Positions 5,677-29,802 of a stretch of DNA of 32,000 bases are shown here, piece after piece. Positions within the stretch are counted from its first letter, which is position 1. Each line of letters starts with the position of its first letter. Source of the DNA: Flavobacteriaceae bacterium (lineage in GTDB: Bacteria > Bacteroidota > Bacteroidia > Flavobacteriales > Flavobacteriaceae); the NCBI GenBank assembly GCA_965224465.1, contig OZ245049.1:2130001-2162000 (forward strand), written 5' to 3'. A program made the translations under genes and the position numbers. Under the pieces are notes generated by a model. That model ran no database searches. It worked only from the letters and a program-made list of their open reading frames with translations, and had not been told where the DNA came from.

Positions 5677-5778
5677 GGAATTATTGACACCAGAAATCAT
5701 ATTCACATTCTTATCATAAGAAGTATCACCCCCTGTATTTGTCCGTCTTTAAAGCCGTAGGTTTTGCCTTTTCTTTTT

Positions 5779-5940: not shown

Positions 5941-6071
5941 GGGAATAGTTCATTGTTATTCAGCGTAGTTCAGCGCAACAAAACGATAAAATCAGTAGAA
6001 CCTTTGGGTTCACTAATTTTAATCGCTAGTCGTTAATAAACTTTATTTTTTCAGAGTGTAAGATGAATTTC

Positions 6072-7486
6072 GGTTGTGTAATTTAAACTCTGTCTGCTTG
6101 TTTTTTTCTACGTTTTAAAATAGTTCGATTTTCTCTTCATAAGGCTGCTTTAAAAATCGAACTATTTTAAAATGAGCCCCAGCGGCTAGCGTCACGAATT
6201 GCTTCCGTTTTTATGTAAATCCAACGTTATTCGATCTTCAAATTTAATATATAATTGTTGAATTGTCAAGCACCAATTATGTAAAGGGTTTGTCCATTTT
6301 TTTTCGATATTTTTTGTTGCTAAGTAAACAAGCTTTAATAGTGCCATATCACTGGTAAAAGCCCCTTTTGTTTTAGTTACTTTTCTTACCTGTCTATGAA
6401 AACCTTCTACTGCATTTGTTGTGTAAATTATTTTTCTGATAGGTTCTGTATACTGAAAAAACTGAGATAACTCTTCCCAATTACGGTTCCAACTTTCTAA
6501 AACTACAGGGTATTTTTCTCCCCATTTTTCTTCTAATTTCAATAACTCCAACTCAGCAATATCCTTATTAACAGCCTTGTAAACAAGCTTTAAATCTCGA
6601 ATAAATTCTTTTTGGTCTTTGGAAGCTATATACTTTAAAGAATTACGAATTTGATGAACAATACACTTTTGAATTTGTGTTTTAGGAAATACACTCAAGA
6701 TAGCTTCTGAAAACCCTTTTAAGTTGTCTGTACAGGCAATTAGGATATCCTTAAGCCCTCTGTTATTAAGGTCTGTCAATACTTGAAGCCAAAAATTTGC
6801 GCCTTCACTTTCTGAAATATACATTCCTAAAACCTCTTTGATCCCTTCTTTATTTACTCCTAAAACATTGTAAAGTGCTTTGTGTTGTATTTTACCGTCT
6901 ACTTTTACCTTGTAATGCATAGCGTCAAGCCAAACAATGCAGTACATCTGTTCTATTGGACGACTTTGCCATTGTTTTATATCTGGTATGATCTTATCTG
7001 TAATTTGACTTAAAACAGTGTGTGATATATCTGTATCATACATCTCTTTTATATGACCAGAAATATCGCGTAAGCTCATTCCTAGGCCGTATAATCCAAT
7101 GATCTTATCTGATAAATTATCTGCTAAAATGGTTTGACGCTTTTTTATCAGAACAGGCTCGAAACTACTATTTCTATCCGCTGGCGTGCTTATTTCAAAA
7201 CTACCAATACTAGTTTTAACAGTCTTTTTGCCCTTTCCATTACGTTTATTCCCTTTAGAACATTCCTCTTCACTAAGGTGTGATTCCATTTCTGCTTCCA
7301 ATGCTTTCTCAAGAAATTGTTTCATTAAAGGAGCAAAGGCACCTTCTTTTCCGAATAAACTTTTTCCTGATAATAATTGATCCAATGCCTTTTTTTCAAT
7401 GTTGGCTAACTCGTCTTTTGTCATGTTTTCTGTTTGAATAAAGTTAATACTTTTTTTTATTCAGACAGAGTTGAGTTTACAGTCCC
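6072..7486 (-). mobile_element. IS256-family insertion sequence, copy 1 (1415 bp) with 8-bp TSD
   Basis: Imperfect IRs GGTTGTGTAATTTAAACTCTGTCTG and (reverse complement) GGGACTGTAAACTCAACTCTGTCTG. TSD TGAATTTC at 6064-6071 and 7487-7494. Same length as copy 2. Confidence 0.9.
6192..7424 (-). CDS. IS256 family (Mutator-like) transposase
   Basis: 410 aa with the typical IS256 N-terminus (GKEGAFAPLMKQFLEKALEAEMESHL) and DDE core (WLDAMHYKV, ACTDNLKGF, QKCIVHQIRN, TTNAVEGFHRQVRKVTK). Confidence 0.95.
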   Translation of the reverse strand: MTKDELANIEKKALDQLLSGKSLFGKEGAFAPLMKQFLEKALEAEMESHLSEEECSKGNKRNGKGKKTVKTSIGSFEISTPADRNSSFEPVLIKKRQTILADNLSDKIIGLYGLGMSLRDISGHIKEMYDTDISHTVLSQITDKIIPDIKQWQSRPIEQMYCIVWLDAMHYKVKVDGKIQHKALYNVLGVNKEGIKEVLGMYISESEGANFWLQVLTDLNNRGLKDILIACTDNLKGFSEAILSVFPKTQIQKCIVHQIRNSLKYIASKDQKEFIRDLKLVYKAVNKDIAELELLKLEEKWGEKYPVVLESWNRNWEELSQFFQYTEPIRKIIYTTNAVEGFHRQVRKVTKTKGAFTSDMALLKLVYLATKNIEKKWTNPLHNWCLTIQQLYIKFEDRITLDLHKNGSNS

Positions 7487-8059
7487 TGAATTTCTTAAAA
7501 GAAAATCAAAAGTCTCAAAGTAAGGTAAACTCCAATTTGGTCTATAGTCAAGAAAGCTACCTCCATCATATTCTTTATCATCTAAAGAATAGTAATACCA
7601 GTAATCATCAGATTTAAACCGATATTCAGGTTCATATCGTTTTGTGTATATTAAATAATGTATTGTAGGTGTTTTTTTAAAAAAAAGAAAAACTCGATTT
7701 ACACTAAATTCATATAAGTTATTATTATACGTAGTTTCTGTATAATAGAACCCTTTTTTTATTAAATATTTTGAAATTGAAATTATATCACTATCATTTG
7801 TGATTTTTTCAATTTCAGTTAGGTTAATGCGACAATAATTATCAGTTTTTAATTTGTTTACACGATCATAATTTTTAATAGAAAATGATTTAATTTTATC
7901 TAAATATCCTGTGTTATAGACTTCGGTATATATTTCACCATATTGATGTCTATTCTGATACACTTTATCGAATTTTATTTTTTTGTATTGAACATATATA
8001 CCTAAAAAAAACAAAGCAGATAACAGTGTAACGATTGTATTTTTCTTATTAATTTTCAT
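7457..8059 (-). CDS. membrane-anchored immunity candidate for the 426-aa effector; 3' end replaced by the IS256 insertion
   Basis: N-terminal TM helix (IVTLLSALFFLGIYV). The start overlaps the effector stop (TAATG). The last 10 codons (GTVNSTLSE + stop, 7457-7486) are IS256 sequence. Reading across the TSD restores the original tail ...FLLRNSSYTLKK*. Confidence 0.6.
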   Translation of the reverse strand: MKINKKNTIVTLLSALFFLGIYVQYKKIKFDKVYQNRHQYGEIYTEVYNTGYLDKIKSFSIKNYDRVNKLKTDNYCRINLTEIEKITNDSDIISISKYLIKKGFYYTETTYNNNLYEFSVNRVFLFFKKTPTIHYLIYTKRYEPEYRFKSDDYWYYYSLDDKEYDGGSFLDYRPNWSLPYFETFDFLLRNSGTVNSTLSE

Positions 8060-9339
8060 TAATCTTTATTTATTTCTATTTCATTGGTAGTCAAGTTACC
8101 GTTAAAACTATATATAATTGGAACATAAGTTATAAAAGGCTTATATCCTCTTAAATGCTGAAGTATATACCAACAAATAAATTCTTCATTCTTTCTTATA
8201 TAATCTTTTAAAATATCTCCAGAATCTAAACCAAAATGGTCAGATATTTCTAATCTAAATTTTCCTTTATAAGAATTGTTATCAAAATAAAATTCAGTTA
8301 GAGATATATCATAAGCTTGTGTTCCATCAATTGAAACACCAAGACCACCAAATTTATCTGGGTATTTAAGGCTGTTAAGTTCCTGTAAACCTTTAATCCC
8401 TAAAACATCAGGATTACCTCCGGATTTTTTTTCATACTCTTTTCTTAAAAATTGATTTTTAGTGTTTTTAACCTTTAAATTAAATATGCTATTAGTATTT
8501 TCTTTTATTGCATTTTTCAATAACGGAGAAAAACCATTTATAAAATCTTTTGTTCTTTGATGATCTGAAACAGCATTTGTTAATCTAATATCTTGGTATT
8601 TGCTGCTTGTATCAATGTTTTTCTTAAAGTAATCAATCATGCTATGTAAATTGTCATCTAGTACTCCTAGTGCCCAATCATCGAGGTCATACTTAAGAAT
8701 CTCAAATAATTTATCATTTGAATATTCACTATATTCTTTAATAACATCCATTGCATAATTAACTCTTGAGTCTTTATCCACAACATCAACACTCTTACCT
8801 ATGTCGTCAAACCCTTTTTCTAAAGCAGTCTTTAATCTCGTTTTCTCTTTTGGATAGTCAATACCCAAGTTTTTTATATCTTGTCTAGTGCAGTTTTTTC
8901 CATTAGTATCATAACAAACACCCGCTCTTTTAACAGAGCGAGCAATTATCATTGGTAAATTAAGTATATTTACTTCTACAAAAACATCCTTATGAGGTAG
9001 GCCCCCTGCATAAGCGTATATCTTAAATTTTTCTTTCGGTTTCTCCGTTTTTATCTTAACTTTTAGTGTATCACCGTCTAGTTCTCCTCCCGAAAAAAGC
9101 TTATACGATTTACAATGGTCATCTTTATCATAGGAGATAGCCCAGTTAATTTTTTTGGGATTGACATTATTATTTCTTAAAGTAGCAACATAAATGTACT
9201 CTTTTTCTTTTTCTATATATTCTAACTTATTGTTAACTGTGTCAAAAGGCCCTTCTACTTTAACAACTACTCTTACAACCTTAGGCAGTTTAATCGTAGT
9301 TTTAGTATTTGGATACCCTTTTATTATTACTGTTGCCAT
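8059..9339 (-). CDS. T6SS-type effector: shared N-terminal 128-aa module plus DUF3289-like C-terminal toxin domain
   Basis: 426 aa. The N-terminal ~128 aa are almost identical to ORF 19287..19952. The C-terminal DHFGLD ... WYILQHLRGYKPF motif is shared with ORF 18559..19197. The start lies 2 nt after the ext2 stop. Confidence 0.65.
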   Translation of the reverse strand: MATVIIKGYPNTKTTIKLPKVVRVVVKVEGPFDTVNNKLEYIEKEKEYIYVATLRNNNVNPKKINWAISYDKDDHCKSYKLFSGGELDGDTLKVKIKTEKPKEKFKIYAYAGGLPHKDVFVEVNILNLPMIIARSVKRAGVCYDTNGKNCTRQDIKNLGIDYPKEKTRLKTALEKGFDDIGKSVDVVDKDSRVNYAMDVIKEYSEYSNDKLFEILKYDLDDWALGVLDDNLHSMIDYFKKNIDTSSKYQDIRLTNAVSDHQRTKDFINGFSPLLKNAIKENTNSIFNLKVKNTKNQFLRKEYEKKSGGNPDVLGIKGLQELNSLKYPDKFGGLGVSIDGTQAYDISLTEFYFDNNSYKGKFRLEISDHFGLDSGDILKDYIRKNEEFICWYILQHLRGYKPFITYVPIIYSFNGNLTTNEIEINKD

Positions 9340-9341
9340 AA

Positions 9342-9848
9342 TTAATTTTCTTGTAAAATTGCTTTTAATGGGATGGATTCAATATCGTTAGTGATTTGAA
9401 CTTCTAACGTATCGTTTTCTAGTTTTATTCCATTATGTTCATAATCTAATTTCTGATCATCTAAGTTAAACTTAAACGTTTTCCCCACAGCGTTGCTACT
9501 TTCTATTACGAGCATAATTTCTTCATCAACATCAATATCATTTTTTTCAAGTTCATTCCCCTCTAAATCTTCTATATGATATTTATTGATCTCTGGTTCA
9601 TCATTTAAAACTGTTGGTTCAACAGTATCTTCCTTAAAAGTTTCTCTCCAAGAGGCAGAATACACACCAAACGAGTTAGAATCTTCTACACCAGCACAGG
9701 TAATTTCTAAAGTTTCCGTCATTGGATCTGAGCCTGTAGAAGAAAAATTGGTTTTCCAATTTACAAGATGACAGTCATAGAAAAATATTTTTCTTGTTTT
9801 CCCTCCCAGAATAAATATTGCTTTTAATGGAGTCGTTACATTTATCTG
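9342..9848 (-). pseudogene. tssD: 5'-truncated tssD (from about codon 72) fused to C-terminal extension type 2
   Basis: The frame reads ...ILGGKTRKIFFYDCHLVNWKTNFSSTGSDPMTETLEITCAGVEDSNSFGVYSASWRETFKEDTVEPTVL, as in the full hcp genes, then a different 84-aa tail. It is open upstream to 9848. No start codon before the internal ATG at 9722 (track ORF 9342..9722). Confidence 0.75.
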
Positions 9849-10534
9849 TCAAATATAATATCTCCAAATAAATTAATTTCAAACTCTTTTTTAATAGAAA
9901 ACAACAAGTTAAACTCATTTGTTTTCTTGTTGTATTTTCTAACAAAATAAGTGTTGTTTTTTACTGTTTTTAAAAATTTTACATTTTTTAATTCATCTAT
10001 TCTATGATTGGTTTCTTTCCATGTTTTTCCATAATCACTAGAGTAATAAGTAACGTTTTTATCAAAGTCATAACATTCTAAAATTCCACTATTGATTGAA
10101 AGAGATTCATTTGAAAGGTTTCTATTAAAAGGTAAAATTTTCTCTATGTTTTTTTTGCTCCAATTACTACCATTATCAGTACTTATATATAAATATTGAG
10201 GAGACGTATCACCATCTGAATTCTTTTTAGAAACAAAAGAGATTGTTTCTTTAATTGTACCTAAGCCATCAAAGATATTTTCATATTCATTGAGGTTAAA
10301 CATTTTTATACTCCATGTTTTTCCTGCGTCATTTGAGATAAATAAATAAGGATTTATTGTTGTGAAAATAATTAAATCACCTTTTTCAATAACACCAGAC
10401 ATTCCTTGTATTTCATATATCTTACTAATAGCATAGTTATTCCATTCATATCTAAACAATCCATATATAAAAATACAGATAAGTATAATTACCATGGTTA
10501 CTATCGTAATTACCATTTTATATCTATTTTTCAT
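9842..10534 (-). CDS. membrane-anchored BNR/Asp-box repeat protein (immunity candidate for the NodB effector)
   Basis: N-terminal TM helix. Three SxDxGxTW-type Asp boxes (SNDAGKTWS, STDNGSNWS, SSDYGKTWK). The start is 1 nt after the deacetylase stop. Confidence 0.6.
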   Translation of the reverse strand: MKNRYKMVITIVTMVIILICIFIYGLFRYEWNNYAISKIYEIQGMSGVIEKGDLIIFTTINPYLFISNDAGKTWSIKMFNLNEYENIFDGLGTIKETISFVSKKNSDGDTSPQYLYISTDNGSNWSKKNIEKILPFNRNLSNESLSINSGILECYDFDKNVTYYSSDYGKTWKETNHRIDELKNVKFLKTVKNNTYFVRKYNKKTNEFNLLFSIKKEFEINLFGDIIFDR

Positions 10535-11315
10535 TTTAATAGTTACTTATAACATCAAAGTTATAGTTTTTCTTTTTAAGTTTTTTTATGAGTGCTTTTA
10601 GTTTGTCAGCTTCATTATTTCTAAAAGCTCTATCATGCATTAATAAAACAATTTTATTTTGTTTTTGAGAATTATCATATTCGAACCACCAGTGAGATGA
10701 AACATCTTCAATTTTATCAAAAACATCATCTGGTGAATCAGTAAGTTTATCAAAATCTTTGTATTCGTCAGAATAAAAATCTATAAAAGGATGCATTTCT
10801 GATTCATTACTCCAATTTAATGTATTGTTTGCTGCTTTTGTTTTAACTTGCTTAACTGCTTCATCATGTGCCTCAAAAGACATACTCCATTCTGTGTCCC
10901 ATCCATAAATAACATACTCTTTTTGGTGTAATAAATCGGCTTCGTCTAATGTATCCATATTGTTATCACTATCAGTAATTTGTATTTTAGGGTATCGCCA
11001 AGTGTTTCGCCCAGGGAATCTTGCTAATTTAATCTGATTACCTCCTAATAATTTATCAGTTTTTCTAAAATCTTCAAGAACACTTCTTCGTTCAAATGTC
11101 CCATCAGGTTTCTTACCTATTTTTAATCCCTCATTATAATAGTGTTTATAGAAATCATTTGCGTGGGAATAACTGTGATTAGCAATTTCATGATTTTCTT
11201 TTATTTCATTCAAAAGGGTTTCCTTTTCATCATTGCCGTAATGTATTCCATAATTAACAATATTGATGCCTGTTAAGAAAAACGTAGCTCTCACTCCTGT
11301 TTCTTTTAATACTTT

Positions 11316-12583: not shown

Positions 12584-12722
12584 AATACTTTTAATATTTC
12601 CTTTGTTCCTGGCTGAATTCCATCATCAAATGTAAGAAAAACAGTTTTTTTCTTAGACACCTTAGGCAGTTTAATCGTAGTTTTAGTATTTGGATACCCT
12701 TTTATTATTACTGTTGCCATAA

Positions 12723-12998
12723 TTAATTTTCTTGTAAAATTGCTTTTAATGGAATGGATTCAATATCGTTAGTGATCTGAACTTCTAACGTATCGTTTTC
12801 TAGTTTTATTCCATTATGTTCATAATCTAATTTCTGATCATCTAAGTTAAATTTAAACGTTTTCCCCACAGCGTTGCTACTTTCTATTACGAGCATAATT
12901 TCTTCATCAACATCAATATCATTTTTTTCAAGTTCATTCCCCTCTAAATCTTCTATATGATATTTATTGATCTCTGGTTCATCATTTAAAACTGTTGG
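12723..12998 (-). pseudogene. orphan extension-2 fragment (no hcp core, no start codon)
   Basis: Frame PTVLNDEPEINKYHIEDLEG...IPLKAILQEN*, preceded directly by an in-frame TGA (12999-13001). Near-identical to 9342..9617 and 19955..20230. Confidence 0.75.
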
Positions 12999-13090
12999 TC
13001 ATAATTACTCAGCTTTCAGTGCAACAAGACGATAAAATTAGTCGAAGCCCACGAACCTACGTAATTTCAATCGCTAGGTATTAGGCAACG
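12999..13090. repeat. inter-cassette element S, copy 1
   Basis: 92 nt, by eye identical to 20231..20322. Contains the imperfect inverted repeat CGATTGAAATTA / TAATTTTATCG (read on the - strand). Diverged relatives at about 5955-6043 and 24095-24175. Confidence 0.6.
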
Positions 13091-13663: not shown

Positions 13664-15078
13664 GGTTGTGTAATTTAAACTCTGTCTGCTTGTTTTTTTC
13701 TACGTTTTAAAATAGTTCGATTTTCTCTTCATAAGGCTGCTTTAAAAATCGAACTATTTTAAAATGAGCCCCAGCGGCTAGCGTCACGAATTGCTTCCGT
13801 TTTTATGTAAATCCAACGTTATTCGATCTTCAAATTTAATATATAATTGTTGAATTGTCAAGCACCAATTATGTAAAGGGTTTGTCCATTTTTTTTCGAT
13901 ATTTTTTGTTGCTAAGTAAACAAGCTTTAATAGTGCCATATCACTGGTAAAAGCCCCTTTTGTTTTAGTTACTTTTCTTACCTGTCTATGAAAACCTTCT
14001 ACTGCATTTGTTGTGTAAATTATTTTTCTGATAGGTTCTGTATACTGAAAAAACTGAGATAACTCTTCCCAATTACGGTTCCAACTTTCTAAAACTACAG
14101 GGTGTTTTTCTCCCCATTTTTCTTCTAATTTCAATAACTCCAACTCAGCAATATCCTTATTAACAGCCTTGTAAACAAGCTTTAAATCTCGAATAAATTC
14201 TTTTTGGTCTTTGGAAGCTATATACTTTAAAGAATTACGAATTTGATGAACAATACACTTTTGAATTTGTGTTTTAGGAAATACACTCAAGATAGCTTCT
14301 GAAAACCCTTTTAAGTTGTCTGTACAGGCAATTAGGATATCCTTAAGCCCTCTGTTATTAAGGTCTGTCAATACTTGAAGCCAAAAATTTGCGCCTTCAC
14401 TTTCTGAAATATACATTCCTAAAACCTCTTTGATCCCTTCTTTATTTACTCCTAAAACATTGTAAAGTGCTTTGTGTTGTATTTTACCGTCTACTTTTAC
14501 CTTGTAATGCATAGCGTCAAGCCAAACAATGCAGTACATCTGTTCTATTGGACGACTTTGCCATTGTTTTATATCTGGTATGATCTTATCTGTAATTTGA
14601 CTTAAAACAGTGTGTGATATATCTGTATCATACATCTCTTTTATATGACCAGAAATATCGCGTAAGCTCATTCCTAGGCCGTATAATCCAATGATCTTAT
14701 CTGATAAATTATCTGCTAAAATGGTTTGACGCTTTTTTATCAGAACAGGCTCGAAACTACTATTTCTATCCGCTGGCGTGCTTATTTCAAAACTACCAAT
14801 ACTAGTTTTAACAGTCTTTTTGCCCTTTCCATTACGTTTATTCCCTTTAGAACGTTCCTCTTCACTAAGGTGTGATTCCATTTCTGCTTCCAATGCTTTC
14901 TCAAGAAATTGTTTCATTAAAGGAGCAAAGGCACCTTCTTTTCCGAATAAACTTTTTCCTGATAATAATTGATCCAATGCCTTTTTTTCAATGTTGGCTA
15001 ACTCGTCTTTTGTCATGTTTTCTGTTTGAATAAAGTTAATACTTTTTTTTATTCAGACAGAGTTGAGTTTACAGTCCC
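13664..15078 (-). mobile_element. IS256-family insertion sequence, copy 2 (1415 bp) with 8-bp TSD
   Basis: Same ends as copy 1. TSD AGAATATC at 13656-13663 and 15079-15086. The intact paralog has a single AGAATATC at about 20888-20895. Confidence 0.95.
13784..15016 (-). CDS. IS256 family transposase (copy 2)
   Basis: 410 aa. Differs from copy 1 at two residues (C55R, Y304H). Confidence 0.95.
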   Translation of the reverse strand: MTKDELANIEKKALDQLLSGKSLFGKEGAFAPLMKQFLEKALEAEMESHLSEEERSKGNKRNGKGKKTVKTSIGSFEISTPADRNSSFEPVLIKKRQTILADNLSDKIIGLYGLGMSLRDISGHIKEMYDTDISHTVLSQITDKIIPDIKQWQSRPIEQMYCIVWLDAMHYKVKVDGKIQHKALYNVLGVNKEGIKEVLGMYISESEGANFWLQVLTDLNNRGLKDILIACTDNLKGFSEAILSVFPKTQIQKCIVHQIRNSLKYIASKDQKEFIRDLKLVYKAVNKDIAELELLKLEEKWGEKHPVVLESWNRNWEELSQFFQYTEPIRKIIYTTNAVEGFHRQVRKVTKTKGAFTSDMALLKLVYLATKNIEKKWTNPLHNWCLTIQQLYIKFEDRITLDLHKNGSNS

Positions 15079-15284
15079 AGAATATCAGATGATTTTTTTG
15101 AATCAAAATTAAAAAACGGAAGATTATAATTACTGAGGATTTCTCCATCACATACTATTGTATCTTTTATAGAACTAACTACAATTTTTGTTTTATTAGT
15201 AGTATTAATTTGACTTTTACAAGAAGTGGTCAATAATACTACTAGCAGAAAAATAATATAATTATTTATCTTTTTCATCTTCGT

Positions 15285-16559
15285 TTATTTTAGTTGTATT
15301 GGTTTTAATTTTAAATCTGAAGTAATTTCAAAAGGGATAACATTAATACCTTTGACGGTTGTTTTAATAGGATTTTGTTTGCGTAATTCTTTTAATAGGA
15401 TTTCTGCTTTTGGGTCTTTTAAATTTACAGTTACTGTTTTTCCTTTCACTTTAGTTTTAACCAATATATCTTTTGAAATAGCTAACAAGATATTTTCAAT
15501 TTCATCTTTTTGCTCTTTTGTTCCAGTCTTATGAATCTCTTTGTAATGTTTGTAAACTTTAAAAGCTTCATCGTCTTTTGCTTTTAATGTATAATCTTTT
15601 CTTTCTTCTATACCATTGGTTCCTCCATTAATTCTTTTGGACACTTTTTTTATACTATCTTTATTGGAATATTCATAAACCTTTCCATTGCCAATCATCC
15701 AATACCAAAGTGCAGATTGAGTAGCATAGATTGGATTTGCTTTGTCTTCTATTTTTTTTGAGTTTATAGCTTTAGTGAAATCTAAATTTACTGAAGCATC
15801 ATTAGAAAAAGGATGTTTTTTTCTGTAATCAGAAAAAATAGTGTAATTATTCTTTCCTGTTAATTGAATGATACCTCTACCTAGAAAATTGTAACCATCA
15901 TCACCTCCATTATGTCCCAAGTCTTTTCTGTTTGAATATTTCCTATTGGCTATTTCTTTTTCATTGTGAGAATGAGATAATACTTGAACATAAATAGTTT
16001 TCTCTTCGTTAAGGTAAATTTTTTCTTGATATTTCTTTTTTTTAGTATAACCATAAATATATGCTGGATTTAGCTTATCACAATTAGCATATTTATCTTT
16101 TTTATCTTTATCCTTTTTTTTATCAGCTTCTTTTCTGTTATCTATAATTTTGAATTTATCTTTATATGTCTTAATATTAGCGTCAGTAAGTTTTATTAGT
16201 TCGCTCTCTGTATAGTATTTCTTAAGACTAGATGGCTTATAAGCCATATCTTCTTTTAGAGTATAAAACTTTTTACTTTCAACTAGACATTGAGAAATAA
16301 AATGAGCTTTACGTAAGCAAGTATCTAGTTTATAAGTTTTTCTGTAGTCATTGAGGTACTTTATGATTTTTTTTGCTAAAATTTCGTTTACATTAGGTTC
16401 AATGTGTTTTATTTGCTCTATTGTTATTTCTTCTTTGCAGTAAGGGCAAGGTTCTGTTTTTTTTATGGTAAGAGGTGTTTCTTTGTACGGAAGTAACTCA
16501 CCGTTGTAATATACCCTTGGTATATAAGTTATTGTTTTAAGCTTTTTCTTTTCAGCCAT
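15285..16559 (-). CDS. GH19/COG3179-type (chitinase/lysozyme-like) peptidoglycan hydrolase effector, copy 1
   Basis: 424 aa. Pattern ITIEQIKHI-P-...LNDYRKTYKLDT-LRKAHFISQCLVESKKF...YSNRKDLGHNGGDDGYNFLGRGIIQLTGKNNY...ATQSALWYWM...RINGGTNGIEERK matches the phage/T6SS GH19-like lysozyme family. The start is 4 nt after the hcp stop. Confidence 0.75.
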   Translation of the reverse strand: MAEKKKLKTITYIPRVYYNGELLPYKETPLTIKKTEPCPYCKEEITIEQIKHIEPNVNEILAKKIIKYLNDYRKTYKLDTCLRKAHFISQCLVESKKFYTLKEDMAYKPSSLKKYYTESELIKLTDANIKTYKDKFKIIDNRKEADKKKDKDKKDKYANCDKLNPAYIYGYTKKKKYQEKIYLNEEKTIYVQVLSHSHNEKEIANRKYSNRKDLGHNGGDDGYNFLGRGIIQLTGKNNYTIFSDYRKKHPFSNDASVNLDFTKAINSKKIEDKANPIYATQSALWYWMIGNGKVYEYSNKDSIKKVSKRINGGTNGIEERKDYTLKAKDDEAFKVYKHYKEIHKTGTKEQKDEIENILLAISKDILVKTKVKGKTVTVNLKDPKAEILLKELRKQNPIKTTVKGINVIPFEITSDLKLKPIQLK

Positions 16560-16563
16560 GATT

Positions 16564-17232
16564 TTATTGTTTTAAAATTACTTCTCCATTTTCGTTAACG
16601 ATTCCTTTAAGTTCTATATTGTTTGTAGGATCATCATCTGCATCTTCTAATATTATTTTTAGTTCTTCACCTTCTTCTATATCTTTTACTTTTAAAAACA
16701 GTTGAGAATTAGAACTAATTTCAGCTTCTTTTATAGAGTTACCTTCTTCGTCTTTCCATTCTGTTTTTAGGATTTTAGGATTTTTTTCAATTTCTTGCTC
16801 TCTCTCTAATACTGTTGGTTCAACAGTATCTTCTTTAAAAGTTTCTCTCCAAGAGGCAGAATACACACCAAACGAGTTAGAATCTTCTACACCAGCACAG
16901 GTAATTTCTAAAGTTTCCGTCATTGGATCTGAGCCTGTAGAAGAAAAATTGGTTTTCCAATTTACAAGATGACAGTCATAGAAAAATATTTTTCTTGTTT
17001 TCCCTCCCACAATAACGGAATTAATATGTAATACTAGCTGTTTTGTTTGCCTGGAGGAAAAAGACCATTCCGTAAGATTTATGTCTTTTCTAGTTTCTAT
17101 AATTAGTTTAAAACCTAGAAATATAGGTGTCTGTGAGGGTCTGCCGTTAGGGTTTGCTCCTTGATTAAATCTGATCGTAAACAATAGTGCGTTTACTTCT
17201 TTTCCATCTATTATTAATGTTGCTTTTACCAT
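16564..17232 (-). CDS. tssD: T6SS-iii tube protein TssD (Hcp) with ~85-aa C-terminal extension type 1, copy 1
   Basis: 222 aa. Residues 1-~135 follow the Bacteroidetes TssD pattern (KATLIIDGKE, GRPSQ, IIETRKD, DPMTETLEI, SASW). The acidic beta-rich tail is not found in canonical ~130-aa TssD. Confidence 0.75.
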   Translation of the reverse strand: MVKATLIIDGKEVNALLFTIRFNQGANPNGRPSQTPIFLGFKLIIETRKDINLTEWSFSSRQTKQLVLHINSVIVGGKTRKIFFYDCHLVNWKTNFSSTGSDPMTETLEITCAGVEDSNSFGVYSASWRETFKEDTVEPTVLEREQEIEKNPKILKTEWKDEEGNSIKEAEISSNSQLFLKVKDIEEGEELKIILEDADDDPTNNIELKGIVNENGEVILKQ

Positions 17233-17294
17233 CGTTATTTTTTTCGTTTTAGGAAGGTGTTTTTAATGTTGCCAATAACCAGTGTCCAACATTG

Positions 17295-17302
17295 CAAAGC
17301 TA
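17295..17302 (-). promoter_or_regulatory. candidate -7 promoter box TAGCTTTG upstream of hcp copy 1
   Basis: TAnnTTTG match on the - strand about 55 nt upstream of the ATG. The same box is conserved at 23103-23110 and 25427-25434. Confidence 0.45.
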
Positions 17303-17659
17303 CCATCATTGAGTATCCATTTATCCTACAATGCAGCATTACGTTTATTATCCAGACACATATACCTGTAAGCGACTATCAAAGTTACATAAAATAGATA
17401 TATGCAATAATTGTTCTTTGACTGTATTTCCCTGTTTTTTTAGATACTTAAAAACCGTTACCTCAATATAGGCAATGCTTCAAAAAAGATAAAATTTAGA
17501 ACTAGACACTTATTTTTAGCTGTTTTTAACAGATAAAATTACAAATCGTTTACTCACAACGCTGAATTATCTGCACCTACTTATTAAAAAGGAAGGAAAC
17601 AATTTATATGAGCCATGTTGCTTTTTAGACAACAATTTAGTTAAACTTGATCTTTTAGA

Positions 17660-17730
17660 GTGGCACAAGTTGAACCATAAACACTGGCACTAAGCAACCA
17701 TAATCGGTGGCACAAATAGAACCGTGGTAG
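17660..17730. repeat. three tandem ~23-24 bp repeats (GTGGCACAAGTTGAACCATAAAC-like)
   Basis: Units start at 17660, 17684 and 17707. The paralogous regions at about 23465 and about 25978 carry one unit only. Confidence 0.7.
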
Positions 17731-17910
17731 CCAATAAGGAGAAGGAAAATGCATCTGTATCCAGATCATGTAAAAAATCACAACATTATTGCTGTGGTTT
17801 TATTGTTTCACAAAAGCCTGCTTAACCATTACACTTAATGGCTGTGCGGCTTAACGTTGACGACACACAATAAAATCGTGCGTTAGCGATGGCGGTTATT
17901 CGTGCTACGA
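17731..17910. repeat. repeat R, copy 2
   Basis: See copy 1. Includes a hairpin at about 17773-17801 which, read on the - strand, is followed by a U run (terminator-like). Confidence 0.8.
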
Positions 17911-17990
17911 GACTGTAAACTAAACTCTGTCTGAATAAAAAAAAATATTAACTTTATTCAAACAGAAAACATGACCCAAGACAGGTAGCG
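17911..17990 (+). mobile_element. remnant of the 5' end of a diverged IS256-family element
   Basis: GACTGTAAACTAAACTCTGTCTGAATAAAAAAAAATATTAACTTTATTCAAACAGAAAACATGAC matches the reverse complement of 7422-7484 with a few mismatches. It breaks off after a few transposase codons. Confidence 0.7.
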
Positions 17991-18116: not shown

Positions 18117-18578
18117 TTATTTTTCGTTTAAAGTAATTGTATCTTTAATGTTTTCAGGGTAGGTTAAATACCAAATATTAGGGTTACTTTCGGATCTTAA
18201 ATAACTTAAAGTCTCCCAATAGTCTTCTTCGCATCTTTCAATTATACTTTCAACATTTTTGAGATGTTTATAGTTCGCAAAATATCCTCTTGTGCAAGAG
18301 TTGTTTTCGAAAAACACAAAACCTAGTTCATTCACAGTAGTATTTGCAACAAGTATTTCTTTTATTCTTTTTCTTGCAAAAAATAAAAGAATAGAATCAT
18401 TATCTGTAGAGCTATAAGATAAACTATTTATTAAATAGGTCTCATAGATTGCTCCATTAGTTTGTTTTTCAGATAATATCTTTTTAGCATTAAAACTGTT
18501 ATCACAACTTATTAGAATAGTCATTAAGAAAAAAAAGCCTATTCTAATAATTATATTTTTATATTTTGTTTCTCTCAT
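18117..18578 (-). CDS. lipoprotein immunity candidate for the frameshifted DUF3289-like effector
   Basis: 153 aa. Signal peptide plus lipobox (MTILISC). The start overlaps the effector 3' end by 20 nt. Confidence 0.6.
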   Translation of the reverse strand: MRETKYKNIIIRIGFFFLMTILISCDNSFNAKKILSEKQTNGAIYETYLINSLSYSSTDNDSILLFFARKRIKEILVANTTVNELGFVFFENNSCTRGYFANYKHLKNVESIIERCEEDYWETLSYLRSESNPNIWYLTYPENIKDTITLNEK

Positions 18579-19952
18579 ATTTACCTTTATTTAGATTACC
18601 AGTAAATTTTTTTGTAAATTTTATATGAGTAATAAATGGTTTATAGCCTCTTAAATGTTGTAGTGTAAACCATGAAGAAAAAATGACTCTAGCACCTTTA
18701 AATAAGTTAAAGTATTTTTCTAAATCAGATTTATCTAATCCAAAGTGATCCCATAAAGTTACATCATACTTTATGTTGTATATATTATTTTCTAATTTAT
18801 ATTCTGTAACCTCAACTTTAGTAGCCCAAATATCATTTAATGCAATCCTTTGTCCTGCCAGTAAGTCTTCAAAAGAATCAAATTGTGGACGCATAAAGAA
18901 AATTTCTTTTCTTGTTGTTTTACTTATCTGAGTAGTTGTTTTTCCTTTTTTCCTACGATTTTTCAAATTGCTTGTTCCCATAAAGTCAATTTCATTTTCA
19001 ATTAGTCCTGACAGTTTCCCTTTGCTGTTTTTTAGTTTTTCAGCAATATAATCTTCTACTTCTTTGCAATAAGTAAGAGTAGATTGATGGTTTTTAATTG
19101 CATTTGTAAGTATATTAGATCGATAAACTCCTCCCTTATTTCTTTTAAATTTGGAAATCATATCTTTTATGTTAATTTCTAATTTCCCTTCAGCCATTAA
19201 GAGTACAACACCTTTTTCAAATTTTACGAAAAGCTCATTATCTGTGTAATTTTCGTTAAGATGTTTTATCTCTTCTCCAGCAGTATCTACAATAAGTTCT
19301 CAACTTTTAAGTACCATGGTACATTTTTGTAATCTATTTTATATATCTCTTCTTTACTATATAATGTTTTATCATATTTATCATCTTTATTGCTTAATGT
19401 AGAAGTAAAAAAAGTATTTGAAATATAATCTTTTTTTAGTTTATTTATAAAGTTATCAGGGTAAACTCTTCTAACTATATTTTCACCCTTTCCATATGTT
19501 AGGTCCTCTGCTATATCTGTTCCCTCATTATTTAATCCAGGCATCCTGAACATATCTATACAAATTGGTAAATTAAGTATATTTACTTCTACAAAAACAT
19601 CCTTATGAGGTAGGTTCCCTGCATAAGCGTATATCTTAAATTTTTCTTTCGGTTTCTCCGTTTTTATCTTAACTTTTAATGTATCACCGTCTAGTTCTCC
19701 TCCCGAAAAAAGCTTATACGATTTACAATGGTCATCTTTATCATAGGAGATAGCCCAGTTAATTTTTTTGGGATTGACATTATTATTTCTTAAAGTAGCA
19801 ACATAAATGTACTCTTTTTCTTTTTCTATATATTCTAACTTATTGTTAACTGTGTCAAAAGGCCCTTCTACTTTAACAACTACTCTTACAACCTTAGGCA
19901 GTTTAATCGTAGTTTTAGTATTTGGATACCCTTTTATTATTACTGTTGCCAT
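18559..19952 (-). pseudogene. DUF3289-like effector paralog split by a frameshift (track ORFs 19287..19952 and 18559..19197)
   Basis: The upstream ORF ends at TAG 19287-19289. The downstream frame is already open from 19299, 34 codons before its ATG. One indel within 19290-19299 would fuse them into a ~460-aa protein built like the 426-aa paralog. Confidence 0.7.
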
Positions 19953-19954
19953 AA

Positions 19955-20230
19955 TTAATTTTCTTGTAAAATTGCTTTTAATGGGATGGATTCAATATCG
20001 TTAGTGATTTGAACTTCTAACGTATCGTTTTCTAGTTTTATTCCATTATGTTCATAATCTAATTTCTGATCATCTAAGTTAAACTTAAACGTTTTCCCCA
20101 CAGCGTTGCTACTTTCTATTACGAGCATAATTTCTTCATCAACATCAATATCATTTTTTTCAAGTTCATTCCCCTCTAAATCTTCTATATGATATTTATT
20201 GATCTCTGGTTCATCATTTAAAACTGTTGG
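19955..20230 (-). pseudogene. orphan extension-2 fragment (no hcp core, no start codon), second copy
   Basis: Same breakpoint as 12723..12998: an in-frame TGA at 20231-20233 immediately precedes CCA ACA GTT. Confidence 0.75.
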
Positions 20231-20322
20231 TCATAATTACTCAGCTTTCAGTGCAACAAGACGATAAAATTAGTCGAAGCCCACGAACCTACGTAATTTC
20301 AATCGCTAGGTATTAGGCAACG
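20231..20322. repeat. inter-cassette element S, copy 2
   Basis: By eye identical to 12999..13090. Confidence 0.6.
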
Positions 20323-21087
20323 TTATAATATTCCTAATTTTTTTTTAAATTCTTCTGTTATGTAGTGTTCTAGTTCATCGAAAGTAAAGAATACTTCATA
20401 TAATGAAAAATCATTATCAGAGTCTCTTAAATTTTCCACTAACCCATTCGTGAATTTTATTCCTAATACTTTTTTTTGATTTTTAGTGATAATCCATGGC
20501 ACTGGAATTTCACTAATAGTAAACTCATCAGGGTATTCTTTATTTATTCTTTTTTGAATTGTATTTACAAGTTTATTATCTGTATTATTAAAGAAATCTT
20601 TAATTGTTATCAATTCTGAATTATCAATATTAAAATTATATATGTAAGAATATCCTGTTAGATATGCTGTATATGTTTCGATGTCTAATTGAATACTAAC
20701 AATATGCTTATTAAGGAAATGAATTGCATAATTACTATTATTAAATGAATAGCAATTATTTGAACAACATTTAGTATTCAAATAATTAGTAAAATTATTA
20801 ATGGTCTTTTTTAAACTAATTGAATCAATTATGTTTGCTTTATTAATAAAGACAAACTCTTCAACTTCCTTTTTTATAATATAATTAAGAATATCAGATG
20901 ATTTTTTTGAATCAAAATTAAAAAACGGAAGATTATAATTACTGAGGATTTCTCCATCACATACTATTGTATCTTTTATAGAACTAACTACAATTTTTGT
21001 TTTATTAGTAGTATTAATTTGACTTTTACAAGAAGTGGTCAATAATACTACTAGCAGAAAAATAATATAATTATTTATCTTTTTCAT
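20323..21087 (-). CDS. lipoprotein immunity protein for the GH19-like effector (intact copy); possibly RsiV/DUF3298-like
   Basis: 254 aa. Signal peptide plus lipobox (LLTTSC). Sits 6 nt downstream of the effector. The central ETYTAYLTGYSYIYNFNIDNSELITIKDFF resembles the DUF3298 core; this is a low-certainty, by-eye call. Confidence 0.7.
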   Translation of the reverse strand: MKKINNYIIFLLVVLLTTSCKSQINTTNKTKIVVSSIKDTIVCDGEILSNYNLPFFNFDSKKSSDILNYIIKKEVEEFVFINKANIIDSISLKKTINNFTNYLNTKCCSNNCYSFNNSNYAIHFLNKHIVSIQLDIETYTAYLTGYSYIYNFNIDNSELITIKDFFNNTDNKLVNTIQKRINKEYPDEFTISEIPVPWIITKNQKKVLGIKFTNGLVENLRDSDNDFSLYEVFFTFDELEHYITEEFKKKLGIL

Positions 21088-21093
21088 CTTCGT

Positions 21094-22368
21094 TTATTTT
21101 AGTTGTATTGGTTTTAATTTTAAATCTGAAGTAATTTCAAAAGGGATAACATTAATACCTTTGACGGTTGTTTTAATAGGATTTTGTTTGCGTAATTCTT
21201 TTAATAGGATTTCTGCTTTTGGGTCTTTTAAATTTACAGTTACTGTTTTTCCTTTCACTTTAGTTTTAACCAATATATCTTTTGAAATAGCTAACAAGAT
21301 ATTTTCAATTTCATCTTTTTGCTCTTTTGTTCCAGTCTTATGAATCTCTTTGTAATGTTTGTAAACTTTAAAAGCTTCATCGTCTTTTGCTTTTAATGTA
21401 TAATCTTTTCTTTCTTCTATACCATTGGTTCCTCCATTAATTCTTTTGGACACTTTTTTTATACTATCTTTATTGGAATATTCATAAACCTTTCCATTGC
21501 CAATCATCCAATACCAAAGTGCAGATTGAGTAGCATAGATTGGATTTGTTTTGTCTTCTATTTTTTTTGAGTTTATAGCTTTAGTGAAATCTAAATTTAC
21601 TGAAGCATCATTAGAAAAAGGATGTTTTTTTCTGTAATCAGAAAAAATAGTGTAATTATTCTTTCCTGTTAATTGAATGATACCTCTACCTAGAAAATTG
21701 TAACCATCATCACCTCCATTATGTCCCAAGTCTTTTCTGTTTGAATATTTCCTATTGGCTATTTCTTTTTCATTGTGAGAATGAGATAATACTTGAACAT
21801 AAATAGTTTTCTCTTCGTTAAGGTAAATTTTTTCTTGATATTTCTTTTTTTTAGTATAACCATAAATATATGCTGGATTTAGCTTATCACAATTAGCATA
21901 TTTATCTTTTTTATCTTTATCCTTTTTTTTATCAGCTTCTTTTCTGTTATCTATAATTTTGAATTTATCTTTATATGTCTTAATATTAGCGTCAGTAAGT
22001 TTTATTAGTTCGCTCTCTGTATAGTATTTCTTAAGACTAGATGGCTTATAAGCCATATCTTCTTTTAGAGTATAAAACTTTTTACTTTCAACTAAACATT
22101 GAGAAATAAAATGAGCTTTACGTAAGCAAGTATCTAGTTTATAAATTTTTCTGTATTCATTGAGGTACTTTATGATTTTTTTCGCTAAAGTTTCGTTTAC
22201 ATTAGGTTCAATGTGTTTTATTTGCTCTATTGTTATTTCTTCTTTGCAGTAAGGGCAAGGTTCTGTTTTTTTTATGGTAAGAGGTGTTTCTTTGTACGGA
22301 AGTAACTCACCGTTGTAATATACCCTTGGTATATAAGTTATTGTTTTAAGCTTTTTCTTTTCAGCCAT
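21094..22368 (-). CDS. GH19/COG3179-type peptidoglycan hydrolase effector, copy 2
   Basis: 424 aa. Four aa differences from copy 1 (I60T, D71E, T75I, A274T). Confidence 0.75.
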   Translation of the reverse strand: MAEKKKLKTITYIPRVYYNGELLPYKETPLTIKKTEPCPYCKEEITIEQIKHIEPNVNETLAKKIIKYLNEYRKIYKLDTCLRKAHFISQCLVESKKFYTLKEDMAYKPSSLKKYYTESELIKLTDANIKTYKDKFKIIDNRKEADKKKDKDKKDKYANCDKLNPAYIYGYTKKKKYQEKIYLNEEKTIYVQVLSHSHNEKEIANRKYSNRKDLGHNGGDDGYNFLGRGIIQLTGKNNYTIFSDYRKKHPFSNDASVNLDFTKAINSKKIEDKTNPIYATQSALWYWMIGNGKVYEYSNKDSIKKVSKRINGGTNGIEERKDYTLKAKDDEAFKVYKHYKEIHKTGTKEQKDEIENILLAISKDILVKTKVKGKTVTVNLKDPKAEILLKELRKQNPIKTTVKGINVIPFEITSDLKLKPIQLK

Positions 22369-22372
22369 GATT

Positions 22373-23041
22373 TTATTGTTTTAAAATTACTTCTCCATTT
22401 TCGTTAACGATTCCTTTAAGTTCTATATTGTTTGTAGGATCATCATCTGCATCTTCTAATATTATTTTTAGTTCTTCACCTTCTTCTATATCTTTTACTT
22501 TTAAAAACAGTTGAGAATTAGAACTAATTTCAGCTTCTTTTATAGAGTTACCTTCTTCATCTTTCCATTCTGTTTTTAGGATTTTAGGATTTTTTTCAAT
22601 TTCTTGCTCTCTCTCTAATACTGTTGGCTCAACAGTATCTTCCTTAAAAGTTTCTCTCCAAGAGGCAGAATACACACCAAACGAGTTAGAATCTTCTACA
22701 CCAGCACAGGTAATTTCTAAAGTTTCCGTCATTGGATCTGAGCCTGTAGAAGAAAAATTGGTTTTCCAATTTACAAGATGACAGTCATAGAAAAATATTT
22801 TTCTTGTTTTCCCTCCCAGAATAACGGAATTAATATGTAATATTAGCTGTTTTGTTTGCCTGCAGGAAAAAGACCATTCCGTAAGGTTTATGTCTTTTCT
22901 AGTTTCTATAATTAATTTAAACCCCAGAAATACGGGGATTTGTGAAGGTCTGCCATTAGGATTTGCTCCTTGATTAAATCTGATCGTAAACAATAGTACG
23001 TTTACTTCTTTTCCATCTATTATTAATGTTGCTTTTACCAT
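22373..23041 (-). CDS. tssD: TssD (Hcp) with C-terminal extension type 1, copy 2
   Basis: 222 aa. Six aa differences from copy 1, all within the first 75 residues. Confidence 0.75.
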   Translation of the reverse strand: MVKATLIIDGKEVNVLLFTIRFNQGANPNGRPSQIPVFLGFKLIIETRKDINLTEWSFSCRQTKQLILHINSVILGGKTRKIFFYDCHLVNWKTNFSSTGSDPMTETLEITCAGVEDSNSFGVYSASWRETFKEDTVEPTVLEREQEIEKNPKILKTEWKDEEGNSIKEAEISSNSQLFLKVKDIEEGEELKIILEDADDDPTNNIELKGIVNENGEVILKQ

Positions 23042-23102
23042 CGTTATTTTTTTCGTTTTAGGAAGGTGTTTTTAATGTTGCCAATATCCACGTCCAACAT
23101 TG

Positions 23103-23110
23103 CAAAGCTA
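23103..23110 (-). promoter_or_regulatory. candidate -7 promoter box TAGCTTTG upstream of hcp copy 2
   Basis: TAnnTTTG on the - strand, about 55 nt upstream of the ATG at 23041. Confidence 0.45.
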
Positions 23111-23608
23111 CCATCATTGAGTATCCATTTAACCTACAATGCAGCATTACGTTTATTATCCAGACACATATATCTAGTAAGCAACTATCAAAATTACATA
23201 AAATAGTTATATACAATAATTATTCTTTGATTGTATTTTCCTGTTTTTTTTGATACCTAAAAACCGTTACCTCAATATGGGAAATGCTTCAAAAAAGATA
23301 AAATTTAGAACTAGACACTTGTTTTTAGCTCTTTTTAACAGATAAAATTACAAATCGTTTACTCACAATGCTGAATTCTCTACACCTATTATTGAAAAGA
23401 AAGGAAACAATTTATATGAGCCATGTTGCTTTTTAGACAACAATTTAGTTAAACTTGATCTTTTAAAGCAGTAGTAATTGAACCGTGGCAACCACAATAA
23501 AACCCAACTAAAATTAGAAATACACACTGTTTTTTACAAAACAAATGAAATTATTTTATTTTTATAAATGCCCCGAAAACGATTGAACAATGCAGATTAC
23601 TGATGCTG

Positions 23609-23644
23609 TCAGCCTTTCATATCAAATGAAAGGCTGTTTGTTTT
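23609..23644 (+). terminator. relict copy of the CAP-gene terminator (no + strand gene upstream)
   Basis: Same hairpin as 3489..3525, with the same flanks. It shows the uninterrupted target of the IS66 insertion. Confidence 0.5.
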
Positions 23645-23876
23645 AATACGGTTGCCTATTCATCACGCCTCATCTAAACAACGCCTTCACCTCTTTATAA
23701 TAGAACAACTTCCTTTAACACCAAATACATTTCTAGAACAAACTATTTATATCGGTTATTTTGGATTGTAATTAGCTTTATTGGCATCAGAAATCATATT
23801 CACATTCTTATCATAAGAAATATTGTTCCCTGTATTTGTACTGTCTTTAAAACCGTAGGTTTTGCCTTTTCTTTTT

Positions 23877-24062
23877 AAAAATGATACAGGAAAATGTATG
23901 TGTAGCCAGAGCATGTAAAAAACCATAACATTATTGCTGTATTTTTTTTGTTTTATAAAAGCCTGCTTAACCATTACGCTTAATGACTGTATGGCTTAAC
24001 GCTGACGACACACGATAAAATCGTGCGTTAGCGATGGCGGTTATTCGTGCGACAGCGAGGGC
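23877..24062. repeat. repeat R, copy 3 (hairpin degenerate)
   Basis: See copy 1. Followed at 24095-24175 by an S-like sequence. Confidence 0.8.
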
Positions 24063-24237
24063 ACAAGAATATATCTCAACAACTACCGCTTATAACCACC
24101 CTAGTTTCAGTACAACAAAGCTATAGAATAGTACCTCCCCCACGTACCTACGTGATTTTAAGCGCAAGTATTTAAATCATTTTTCATTTTATTTATCGTT
24201 TAAACATTTTCAAAATAACATATAGTGACCAATATAT

Positions 24238-26001: not shown

Positions 26002-26176
26002 CCAATAAGGAGAAGGAAAATGCATCTGTATCCAGAACATGTAAAAAACCACAACATTATTGCTGTGGTTTTATTGTTTCACAAAAGCCTGCTTAACCAT
26101 TACACTTAATAGCTGTGTGGCTTAACGTTGACAACACACGATAAAACACGTTAACGACGACGGTTATTCGTGCGCC
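26002..26176. repeat. repeat R, copy 4
   Basis: See copy 1. Has the best-formed hairpin: AAAACCACAAC-ATTATT-GCTGTGGTTTT. Confidence 0.8.
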
Positions 26177-26194
26177 AGCTGGGTTTTCTTTTTA

Positions 26195-29391: not shown

Positions 29392-29610
29392 TTAATAGCT
29401 CGTTATAAGACTTTCATCGTTTCTCATAATATCCCATTGCCATTTGAATAAGGAATACATTTTTCCTTTAAATTTATTATCTCCAGATGAATAATAGCCA
29501 CCACTTGGAGCACTAGCACCAATCTGCCAATCATAATCCATATAATTGTCAGTATAACCACGGTGAAATATATGAGGTGATGATATCCTTAATCTTCCTC
29601 TTGCTTCCAT
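29392..29610 (-). pseudogene. C-terminal fragment of a metallopeptidase toxin paralog
   Basis: SPHIFHRGYTDNYMDY...FKWQWDIMRNDESLITSY aligns with residues ~100-156 of ORF 27131..27601. The HExxH region upstream lies inside repeat R5 and is degenerate (LHAGYTY). Confidence 0.7.
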
Positions 29611-29790: not shown

Positions 29791-29802
29791 CATTACAAAA
29801 CG

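Follow-up and report, generated by a model that had tools for sequence, protein, structure and literature searches.

Repeats within immunity arrays (rAID-1), attC-like repeats and effector/immunity arrays that change by recombination are already known. The rAID-1 arrays are defined by a XerD-family tyrosine recombinase encoded at the array head (Ross et al. 2019; PMC12247911). Orphan effector-immunity modules and effector displacement in type VI secretion system (T6SS), Rhs and contact-dependent inhibition (CDI) loci are described by Kirchberger et al. 2017 (PMC5361080) and by Koskiniemi et al. 2014 (as cited in PMC5361080), and homologous recombination between repeated segments is the proposed driver (PMC5361080). 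Toxin/immunity arrays decide which neighbours a bacterium kills or survives. What is understood of how their modules come and go concerns mainly homology within coding sequence (Rhs, CDI, Vibrio T6SS), and for the immunity arrays of gut Bacteroidales an integron-like turnover is only suspected. Here we describe R, a non-coding unit of ~180 nt in a 32,000-nt stretch of a Flavobacteriaceae bacterium genome (GCA_965224465.1, OZ245049.1; hereafter the window), read throughout on the gene (minus) strand. We read R as a repeat that is specific to this lineage and marks the junctions between cassettes. We lean towards the view that its copies recombine with each other, most simply by homologous recombination and gene conversion, and so change the set of cassettes, and that its hairpin terminates the upstream cassette.

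The locus comes from the same phylum as rAID-1 and resembles it in having co-oriented genes that appear linked to T6SS immunity, toxin remnants among them, and a repeat conserved from one junction to the next; both are accessory islands acquired horizontally, with an integron-like look (Ross et al. 2019; bioRxiv 10.1101/471110; PMC12247911). With the T6SS, Rhs and CDI orphan modules it shares arrays that grow and change by recombination and 5'-truncated toxin genes that are kept together with their immunity genes (Kirchberger et al. 2017, PMC5361080). It is a small and testable example from a different class of the phylum, in which a non-coding 180-nt unit marks the breakpoints of both rearrangements examined.

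Cassette differences between strains begin and end inside R

Repeat finding and alignment located five copies of R in the window, each ~175-185 nt long and all in the same orientation on the minus strand: R1 (5778-5943), R2 (17734-17910), R3 (23876-24060), R4 (26005-26183) and R5 (29610-29791). A hidden Markov model built from them recovered exactly these five in the 32 kb and nothing more (nhmmer, E 2e-59 to 2e-66), so that the original prediction, made from the sequence alone, had placed all copies correctly. It was also right in describing R as relatively GC-rich, the G+C content being 0.39-0.41 compared to 0.30 for the window. The 5' 100 nt reach 0.43-0.50, with a CpG observed/expected ratio of 1.5-1.8 (window, 0.78). 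The 5' limit of the repeat, CC..GCTGTCGCACGA, is common to copies that lie beside at least five unrelated upstream sequences, and the 3' limit falls within ~10 nt beside three different downstream sequences. Since the motif that follows R2 and R4 (TGGCTACCACGGTTCTATTTGTGCC) is also present in a related locus without R (L009), R truly ends at its 3' limit. Copies in unrelated contexts have both limits in common, and R is in this sense a discrete unit of ~180 nt.

For the comparison between strains we used a Logan short-read contig from a related strain (L002; ERR13605529, 4403 nt), which carries two R copies, L2a and L2b. The contig is free of the IS30 and IS66 insertions (IS, insertion sequence) and otherwise shows two structural differences from the window. 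At the first, L002 960-3211 corresponds to window 28262-26024 at 96.6% identity, then the match switches inside R to window 5922-5535, and the contig continues through the tail of R1 into the CAP gene. The copy at the switch, L2b (L002 3053-3215), consists of an R4-like 5' part and an R1-like 3' part, with the crossover in alignment columns 74-137. From this chimaera and its continuation into the R1 tail and CAP we infer that the ~20 kb between R4 and R1, which hold all three Hcp cassettes as well as R2 and R3, are absent from the strain of L002. The second difference lies at the R5 position, where the genes upstream of R are unrelated between L002 and the window. R5 and L2a differ at 11 sites, all of them in the 5' ~75 nt of R, and downstream the sequences are 100% identical for ~325 nt, through a toxin fragment to the IS30 insertion site. 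This fragment, the 5'-truncated remainder of a HExxH-toxin gene (29392-29610, minus strand), is joined directly to the 3' end of R5, and the same junction is 100% identical in L002. Strain-to-strain cassette differences thus begin and end inside R in both non-IS rearrangements (2/2), and as R makes up ~8% of L002, this is unlikely by chance. The suggestion that R provides the homology for gain, loss and shuffling of cassettes is supported by these breakpoints, which a comparison of the locus with one related-strain contig has now revealed, and by the mosaic structure of the copies.

R copies are mosaics of one another. A 3-nt deletion defines 5' subtype x (R4, R5, L2a, L2b), compared to subtype y (R1, R2, R3), and the 3' halves fall into subtypes A (R2, R4, R5, L2a) and B (R1, R3, L2b), with all four combinations present among the seven copies. 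Several site pairs inside the 5' half are incompatible in the four-gamete test. The 3' halves cluster by what lies downstream: R2 and R4, followed by a leader, are 97% identical, R1 and R3, followed by the tail, 96%, and R5 and L2a, followed by the toxin fragment, 100%. The 5' halves of the orthologous pair R5/L2a are only 87% identical, and R5 has the most divergent 5' part of the five window copies. R itself is conserved at 86-97% (R2, R4), whereas the adjoining hcp leader reaches 68-78%. Mosaicism, clustering by context and a conservation above that of the leader form the pattern expected if the repeats exchange sequence and the flanking DNA is swapped there. R1 is further distinguished by a 24-nt deletion, which alignment confirmed to fall between CGCACGA direct repeats, as had been noticed before.

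The cassette array, its distribution and the R hairpin

The array is a type VI secretion (T6SS-iii) Hcp-effector-immunity island of a marine Flavobacteriaceae bacterium, and the genes of the region are, with few exceptions, encoded on the minus strand. Its upstream end is cut by an IS21 copy and by the edge of the window, the array head lying beyond position 32000. Read along the gene strand, an IS21-truncated lipoprotein gene precedes R5, which abuts the 5'-truncated HExxH-toxin fragment; then come IS30, a 170-aa lipoprotein, an orphan toxin, a 158-aa open reading frame (ORF), a 109-aa ORF and R4. A hcp-type leader and a 362-aa lipoprotein lead to R3, which is followed by a copy of the tail, a hcp leader, Hcp, a 424-aa effector and a 254-aa immunity gene (imm254), and after these by a hcp fragment, an effector fragment, a DUF3289 toxin, a 153-aa ORF and R2. 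The last segment consists of a leader, Hcp, a 424-aa effector, a 254-aa immunity gene split by IS256, ISL3, a deacetylase pair, a hcp fragment, a 426-aa effector, a 200-aa ORF, IS256 and R1. R1 is the final copy of the array, and behind it follow the shared tail, IS66 and then the CAP gene, which is convergent; the Dcp gene marks the far end. All five R copies sit after the final ORF of a multi-gene cassette, which indicates that R closes multi-gene cassettes. The genes are co-oriented; the 362-aa, 170-aa and 109-aa ORFs look orphan, and complete Hcp-effector-immunity cassettes are also present. Matches to Pfam identified TssD/Hcp (16564-17232, with a duplicate at 22373-23041), two DUF3289 effectors (8059-9339 and 18559-19197), a polysaccharide deacetylase (10536-11294) and a Tli3/BNR-type immunity protein (9842-10534). 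The transposases belong to IS66, IS256 (two copies), ISL3 and IS30, and fragments of IS21 are present as well.

The claim that R always follows an immunity gene holds as far as the position behind the last cassette gene and the distances of ~10 to ~205 nt are concerned, while the label itself derives from position alone: the ORFs upstream of R gave no Pfam matches. R5 and R4 begin ~10 nt behind the stops of the IS21-truncated lipoprotein gene and the 109-aa ORF, respectively, R1 ~120 nt (the IS256 copy set aside), R3 ~175 nt and R2 ~205 nt behind theirs. Part of the long gap before R2 is explained by an 80-nt terminal remnant of IS256 (17911-17989, minus strand), which is inverted and matches the IS256 ends at 7405-7484 and 14997-15076 with 92.5% identity; it abuts R2 and replaces its first ~10 nt. 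A spacer of ~85 nt precedes R1 (5950-6035) and R3 (24105-24190) on the minus strand. Two other copies of it lie downstream of both imm254 copies (20231-20314 and 12999-13082) and adjoin a hcp C-terminal fragment instead of R, which suggests that the imm254/hcp-fragment junction lost R or never had it.

On the downstream side, R2 and R4 are followed by a hcp leader and R5 by a toxin fragment, as described earlier. A decayed toxin remnant had been proposed behind R1 and R3, but BLASTP and tblastn found no significant similarity to toxins in this tail. The tail (5535-5777 on the minus strand after R1, 23588-23875 after R3, L002 3216-3526) follows the subtype-B copies and contains a remnant of an IS30 end. 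After R3 and in L002 it runs into the terminator of the CAP gene. This strong terminator hairpin (CAGCCTTTCA..TGAAAGGCTG) lies at 3490-3516 (L002 3479-3505) and is duplicated at 23610-23636 in the R3 tail, where the CAP gene is missing, which indicates that the array end was copied into the array interior. The terminal 25-56 nt of IS30 (29324-29379) recur as solo remnants at 5625-5649 in the tail after R1 and at L002 3334-3389, the latter being 100% identical over 56 nt.

Other duplications were found in the array. A 300-nt segment occurs three times at 99% identity (9278-9577, 12659-12958 and 19891-20190); it reaches from the C-terminal extension of hcp into the start of the MATVIIKGYPNTK effector, and appears to be a second homology block, consisting of coding sequence, where cassettes were joined. 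A recent segmental duplication (15079-17676 and 20888-23484, 91-100% identical, offset 5809 nt) runs from the leader through Hcp and the 424-aa effector into the beginning of the 254-aa immunity gene; R2 precedes one copy, and the tail with R3 precedes the other. A motif (..CAATTACAATCCAAAATAACCGATA..) between Dcp and CAP (2313-2398) is shared with the R3 tail (23695-23780). In L008 (742-792 and 3314-3364), a related Hcp locus from another assembly, it stands ~120 nt upstream of hcp, and it may be a regulatory element of T6SS-linked genes.

R seems to be confined to this lineage. Exact patterns from two different conserved R segments gave no matches in 185,579 species-representative genomes, which include Bacteroidales and do not contain the source genome (the window's own matches are absent from the collection), nor in JGI metagenomes. 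Likewise, a pattern scan of viral contigs and BLASTN searches of plasmids and phages gave no matches. The related Hcp loci L001 (81% identical Hcp), L003, L008 and L009 are without R, as are the Dcp-anchored syntenic loci of the nearest relatives (L004-L007). These relatives are metagenome-assembled genomes with a Dcp 84-90% identical to that of the window; they have the gene order Dcp-CAP-pyr_redox with neither array nor R, a pyridine-nucleotide-disulfide oxidoreductase gene following directly after CAP (e.g. L004 12028-13972). Since the relatives lack both, the island is accessory, and this gene order shows that the whole T6SS cassette island (>29 kb) was inserted beside CAP in the lineage of the source genome. 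Locus L008 has, downstream of its Hcp-effector pair, tandem genes of 109, 124 and 80 aa in ~3 repeats with a period of ~1.67 kb (5594-9980). This is a different multiplication of presumed immunity genes, with no R-like element.

About 110 nt into R, the gene strand shows an A-tract, a hairpin and a T-tract, in accordance with the original prediction of a hairpin with a T-run behind it. The best hairpin belongs to R4 (26045-26072, minus strand) and has the form AAAACCACAGC-AATAAT-GTTGTGGTTTT followed by TT, with a 12-bp stem and -14.5 kcal/mol; for this copy the gene strand is favoured because its G-U pair becomes an A-C mismatch on the other strand. The equivalent stems of R2 (17779-17796) and R5 (29661-29678) have -7.8 kcal/mol each, and a terminator pattern scan flagged these two copies on the minus strand. 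With a G+C-containing stem-loop and a U-run 3' of a stop codon on the same strand, R has the hallmarks of an intrinsic terminator, and it is plausible that the hairpin acts as such. It is intact in the A-type copies, ahead of another cassette, whereas the three B-type copies (R1, R3, L2b), which have the shared tail after them, carry decayed versions. In R1 (~5821-5848, -10.4 kcal/mol) the hairpin is weakened and in R3 (~23919-23946, -2.8 kcal/mol) it is decayed, both on the minus strand. This would fit relaxed selection, as a second, CAP-type terminator follows in R3 and L2b. Promoter boxes of the Bacteroidetes -7 type occur in the hcp leaders, 70-155 nt upstream of the hcp start codons, and no Bacteroidetes-type promoter (TTTG...TAnnTTTG) was found inside R.

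Proposed recombination between R copies and alternative explanations

According to the reading we favour, R would serve as portable homology for RecA-type recombination and gene conversion between copies, either within a single chromosome or when incoming DNA meets the resident array. Whole cassettes could in this way be deleted, duplicated, inserted or exchanged, and the 5' half of R would stay linked to the upstream gene and the 3' half to whatever follows. At the R5/toxin-fragment junction, an incoming segment ending in R may have displaced the 5' part of the resident toxin gene. The A-tract, hairpin and T-tract in the 3' half would end transcription of the upstream cassette before the own promoter of the next one.

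Several points weigh against this reading. Only seven R copies from two genomes are available, and for the source genome the scope is the 32-kb window of 5.24 Mb, so that copies in unrelated contexts may exist elsewhere. Two breakpoints are few, and L002 is a short-read contig, so a chimaeric join is possible, yet improbable, given that no 31-mer is common to R4 and R1 and that L2b carries substitutions of its own. R does not occupy every cassette junction, as the imm254/hcp-fragment junction shows. For the terminator, folding confirmed a local hairpin, as the original prediction had expected, but the stems are weak (-7.8 to -14.5 kcal/mol) and folding of the opposite strand is about equally favourable. 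The motif is close to symmetric, and in R2 and R5 the hairpin is even slightly more stable on the antisense strand. RNAalifold detected no compensatory pairs for any helix on either strand, a hand-built four-helix model was no better than shuffles, and folding z-scores against dinucleotide shuffles were modest and inconsistent between copies (+0.4 to -3.2). Furthermore, the precise limits on both sides in independent contexts are not predicted by passive homology alone, and RecA-type recombination and the action of a dedicated recombinase would look alike in these data.

The main rival is a site-specific recombination site, attC-like or rAID-like, with a tyrosine recombinase encoded outside the window and a fixed crossover in the middle of R. 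We regard this as possible, though rather unlikely. In its favour, all copies occupy the position directly 3' of a cassette ORF, point the same way and end sharply beside unrelated genes; the upstream gene takes the 5' half along with it, and the sequence downstream takes the 3' half. Both switches fit one central site, GGTTAAGCAGGCTTTT (R5/L2a, columns 122/123; L2b, columns 74-137), and the head of the array lies past the end of the window. However, the crossover intervals are wide, and the fine patchwork in the 5' half resembles gene conversion. The window ORFs include neither a tyrosine nor a serine recombinase, only the IS66, IS256, ISL3, IS30 and IS21 transposases, and no tRNA or tmRNA was found as a possible att site. 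Compared to attC, all five R copies share the position directly 3' of a cassette ORF and the single orientation. An adjacent IntI-type integrase is missing among the window ORFs, where DDE transposases are the only enzymes of this kind, the head of the array lying beyond position 32000. Instead of forming a single imperfect palindrome (R''-L''...L'-R') or one long imperfect hairpin, R folds into three or four local hairpins with its ends unpaired. An inverted-repeat search yielded only the central hairpin and one pair of 9-10 nt, with no inverted RYYYAAC/GTTRRRY pair; the heptamer GTTAAGC occurs twice in the middle of R, in direct orientation. A more far-reaching version, in which R is the site of an undescribed integron-like system of Flavobacteriaceae that reshuffles whole T6SS Hcp-effector-immunity cassettes through a recombinase outside the window cutting in the middle of R, seems to us less probable still.

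A different question is where R came from. It might derive from the 3' end of an ancestral gene and thus comprise its last ~28 codons, the stop, a short 3' untranslated region (UTR) and the terminator, a piece that would have been copied together with cassette ends. Such an origin would be compatible with a role in recombination, but we consider it doubtful. If so, the ancestral protein would end in ..FYRVSSTLSHTAIKCNG. One frame of the 5' part is open in 7/7 copies (..AVARITAIANxxFYRVSSTLSHTAIKCNG*), and in six of the seven the same TAA ends it ~25 nt before the hairpin. The indels of the 5' part measure 3 and 24 nt, those of the 3' part 1, 2 and 5 nt, and the G+C content of the 5' part is coding-like or higher. 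On the other hand, substitutions at codon positions 1/2/3 number 9/8/5 and give no sign of coding constraint. The frame has no consistent start and no upstream extension, and by chance alone, open frames of 28 codons are not unusual. R-derived peptides matched nothing in the window or the compared loci, and, searched as a concatenated query against 5.8 billion predicted proteins, gave no match at E <= 0.001.

It is still less likely that R is a small non-autonomous mobile element, comparable to a miniature inverted-repeat transposable element (MITE) or a repetitive extragenic palindrome (REP) with a terminator, that accumulated in the island. As such an element would, R forms a discrete unit with internal hairpins and the same two ends in different contexts, and the island is rich in IS elements and their remnants. 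The inverted-repeat search and the alignment of flanks revealed neither terminal inverted repeats nor target-site duplications, though, and R resembles none of the IS ends found in the window. The copies are uniform in orientation and in the kind of site they occupy, with none outside the island within the window, and the failure to find R in the species genomes, metagenomes, viral contigs, plasmids, phages and syntenic loci of relatives also speaks against an element of this kind.

A functional RNA (a 3'-UTR-derived small RNA or stabiliser on the gene strand) or a peptide of 27-38 aa encoded on the opposite strand (M..HVKNHNIIAVVLLFHKSLLN.., preceded by AAGGAG) is very improbable in our view. 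R stands out as rich in G+C and CpG within an AT-rich genome, z-scores of the gene-strand fold go down to -3.2, and seven changes on one side of a helix preserve pairing as G-U on the gene strand. But those z-scores are inconsistent and compensatory pairs are missing, and Rfam gave no matches for the whole window, a permissive scan of R4 reaching only chance level (E 1.7-7.4). The small antisense ORF (plus strand; 17737-17835, 26008-26106 and 29637-29753; minus strand in L002, 632-727) is intact in 4/4 A-type copies, in R5 and L2a via a different ATG after a 2-nt deletion. Against a peptide stand a hydrophobic run of only 8 residues, A/B differences that are all non-synonymous and the stopped ORF in R1, R3 and L2b. 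Flavobacteriia, moreover, rarely use Shine-Dalgarno sequences. The ORF is probably spurious.

The idea that R is the decayed 5' part of the metallopeptidase toxin gene, drawn from R5 being contiguous and in frame with the toxin fragment and reading FLHAGYTYISLLLIIF there (the frame is also kept in L2a, and TTACATGnnGG, coding for L-H-x-G, lies <=3 nt from the co-linear position of the toxin LHEG), is close to refuted: when aligned to the toxin 5' region, all five copies score at or below the mean of dinucleotide shuffles in local nucleotide alignment, co-linear identity is 35-42% against a background of 27 +/- 6% (maximum 48%), tblastn of the toxin versus R gives E > 0.7 in a tiny database, stop codons occur in all R frames, and within the window 'LH-G' is specific to R5 (at this place R2, R4, R1 and R3 have FLHDLD, FLHVLD and FLHALA).

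Comparison with known systems

The locus differs from each of the described systems in some respect. A XerD-family recombinase of the rAID-1 kind was not found in the 32-kb window, which ends before the array head. While rAID arrays consist almost only of orphan immunity genes, the array studied here has complete Hcp-effector-immunity cassettes with their own promoters, and R separates multi-gene cassettes rather than every gene. The attC sites of sedentary chromosomal integrons, such as the Vibrio cholerae repeats, come close: they too are highly similar repeats (120-180 nt) that directly follow unrelated cassette ORFs on the 3' side, all pointing the same way, and cassettes are gained and lost at them; the cassettes here differ in being multi-gene and promoter-carrying.

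REPs are short (~35 nt), palindromic and present in hundreds of copies per genome. R is like them and like bacterial interspersed mosaic elements (BIMEs) in its repeated intergenic copies, its hairpin and its location 3' of genes, but it is 180 nt long, mostly non-palindromic and known from one island only. Some intergenic repeats of the REP/BIME type also serve as terminators or stabilise mRNA.

The homology that T6SS, Rhs and CDI loci have in common lies in coding sequence (such as the toxin N-terminus, vgrG or rhs core), whereas here it is mainly a non-coding 180-nt unit after the immunity gene; the coding type is also present in the window, in the form of the hcp fragment found three times. 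The R5/toxin-fragment junction, shared with L002, parallels the displacement model of Kirchberger et al. (PMC5361080). Should a recombinase prove to take part, integron-like gene capture would reach as far as whole weapon cassettes of a secretion system. Otherwise the locus shows how a spacer with a terminator can turn into the handle by which an arsenal recombines. In relation to the described systems, what is new is a lineage-restricted repeat of a flavobacterium, probably unrelated to theirs in sequence, that separates complete Hcp-effector-immunity cassettes and inside which natural breakpoints have been mapped.

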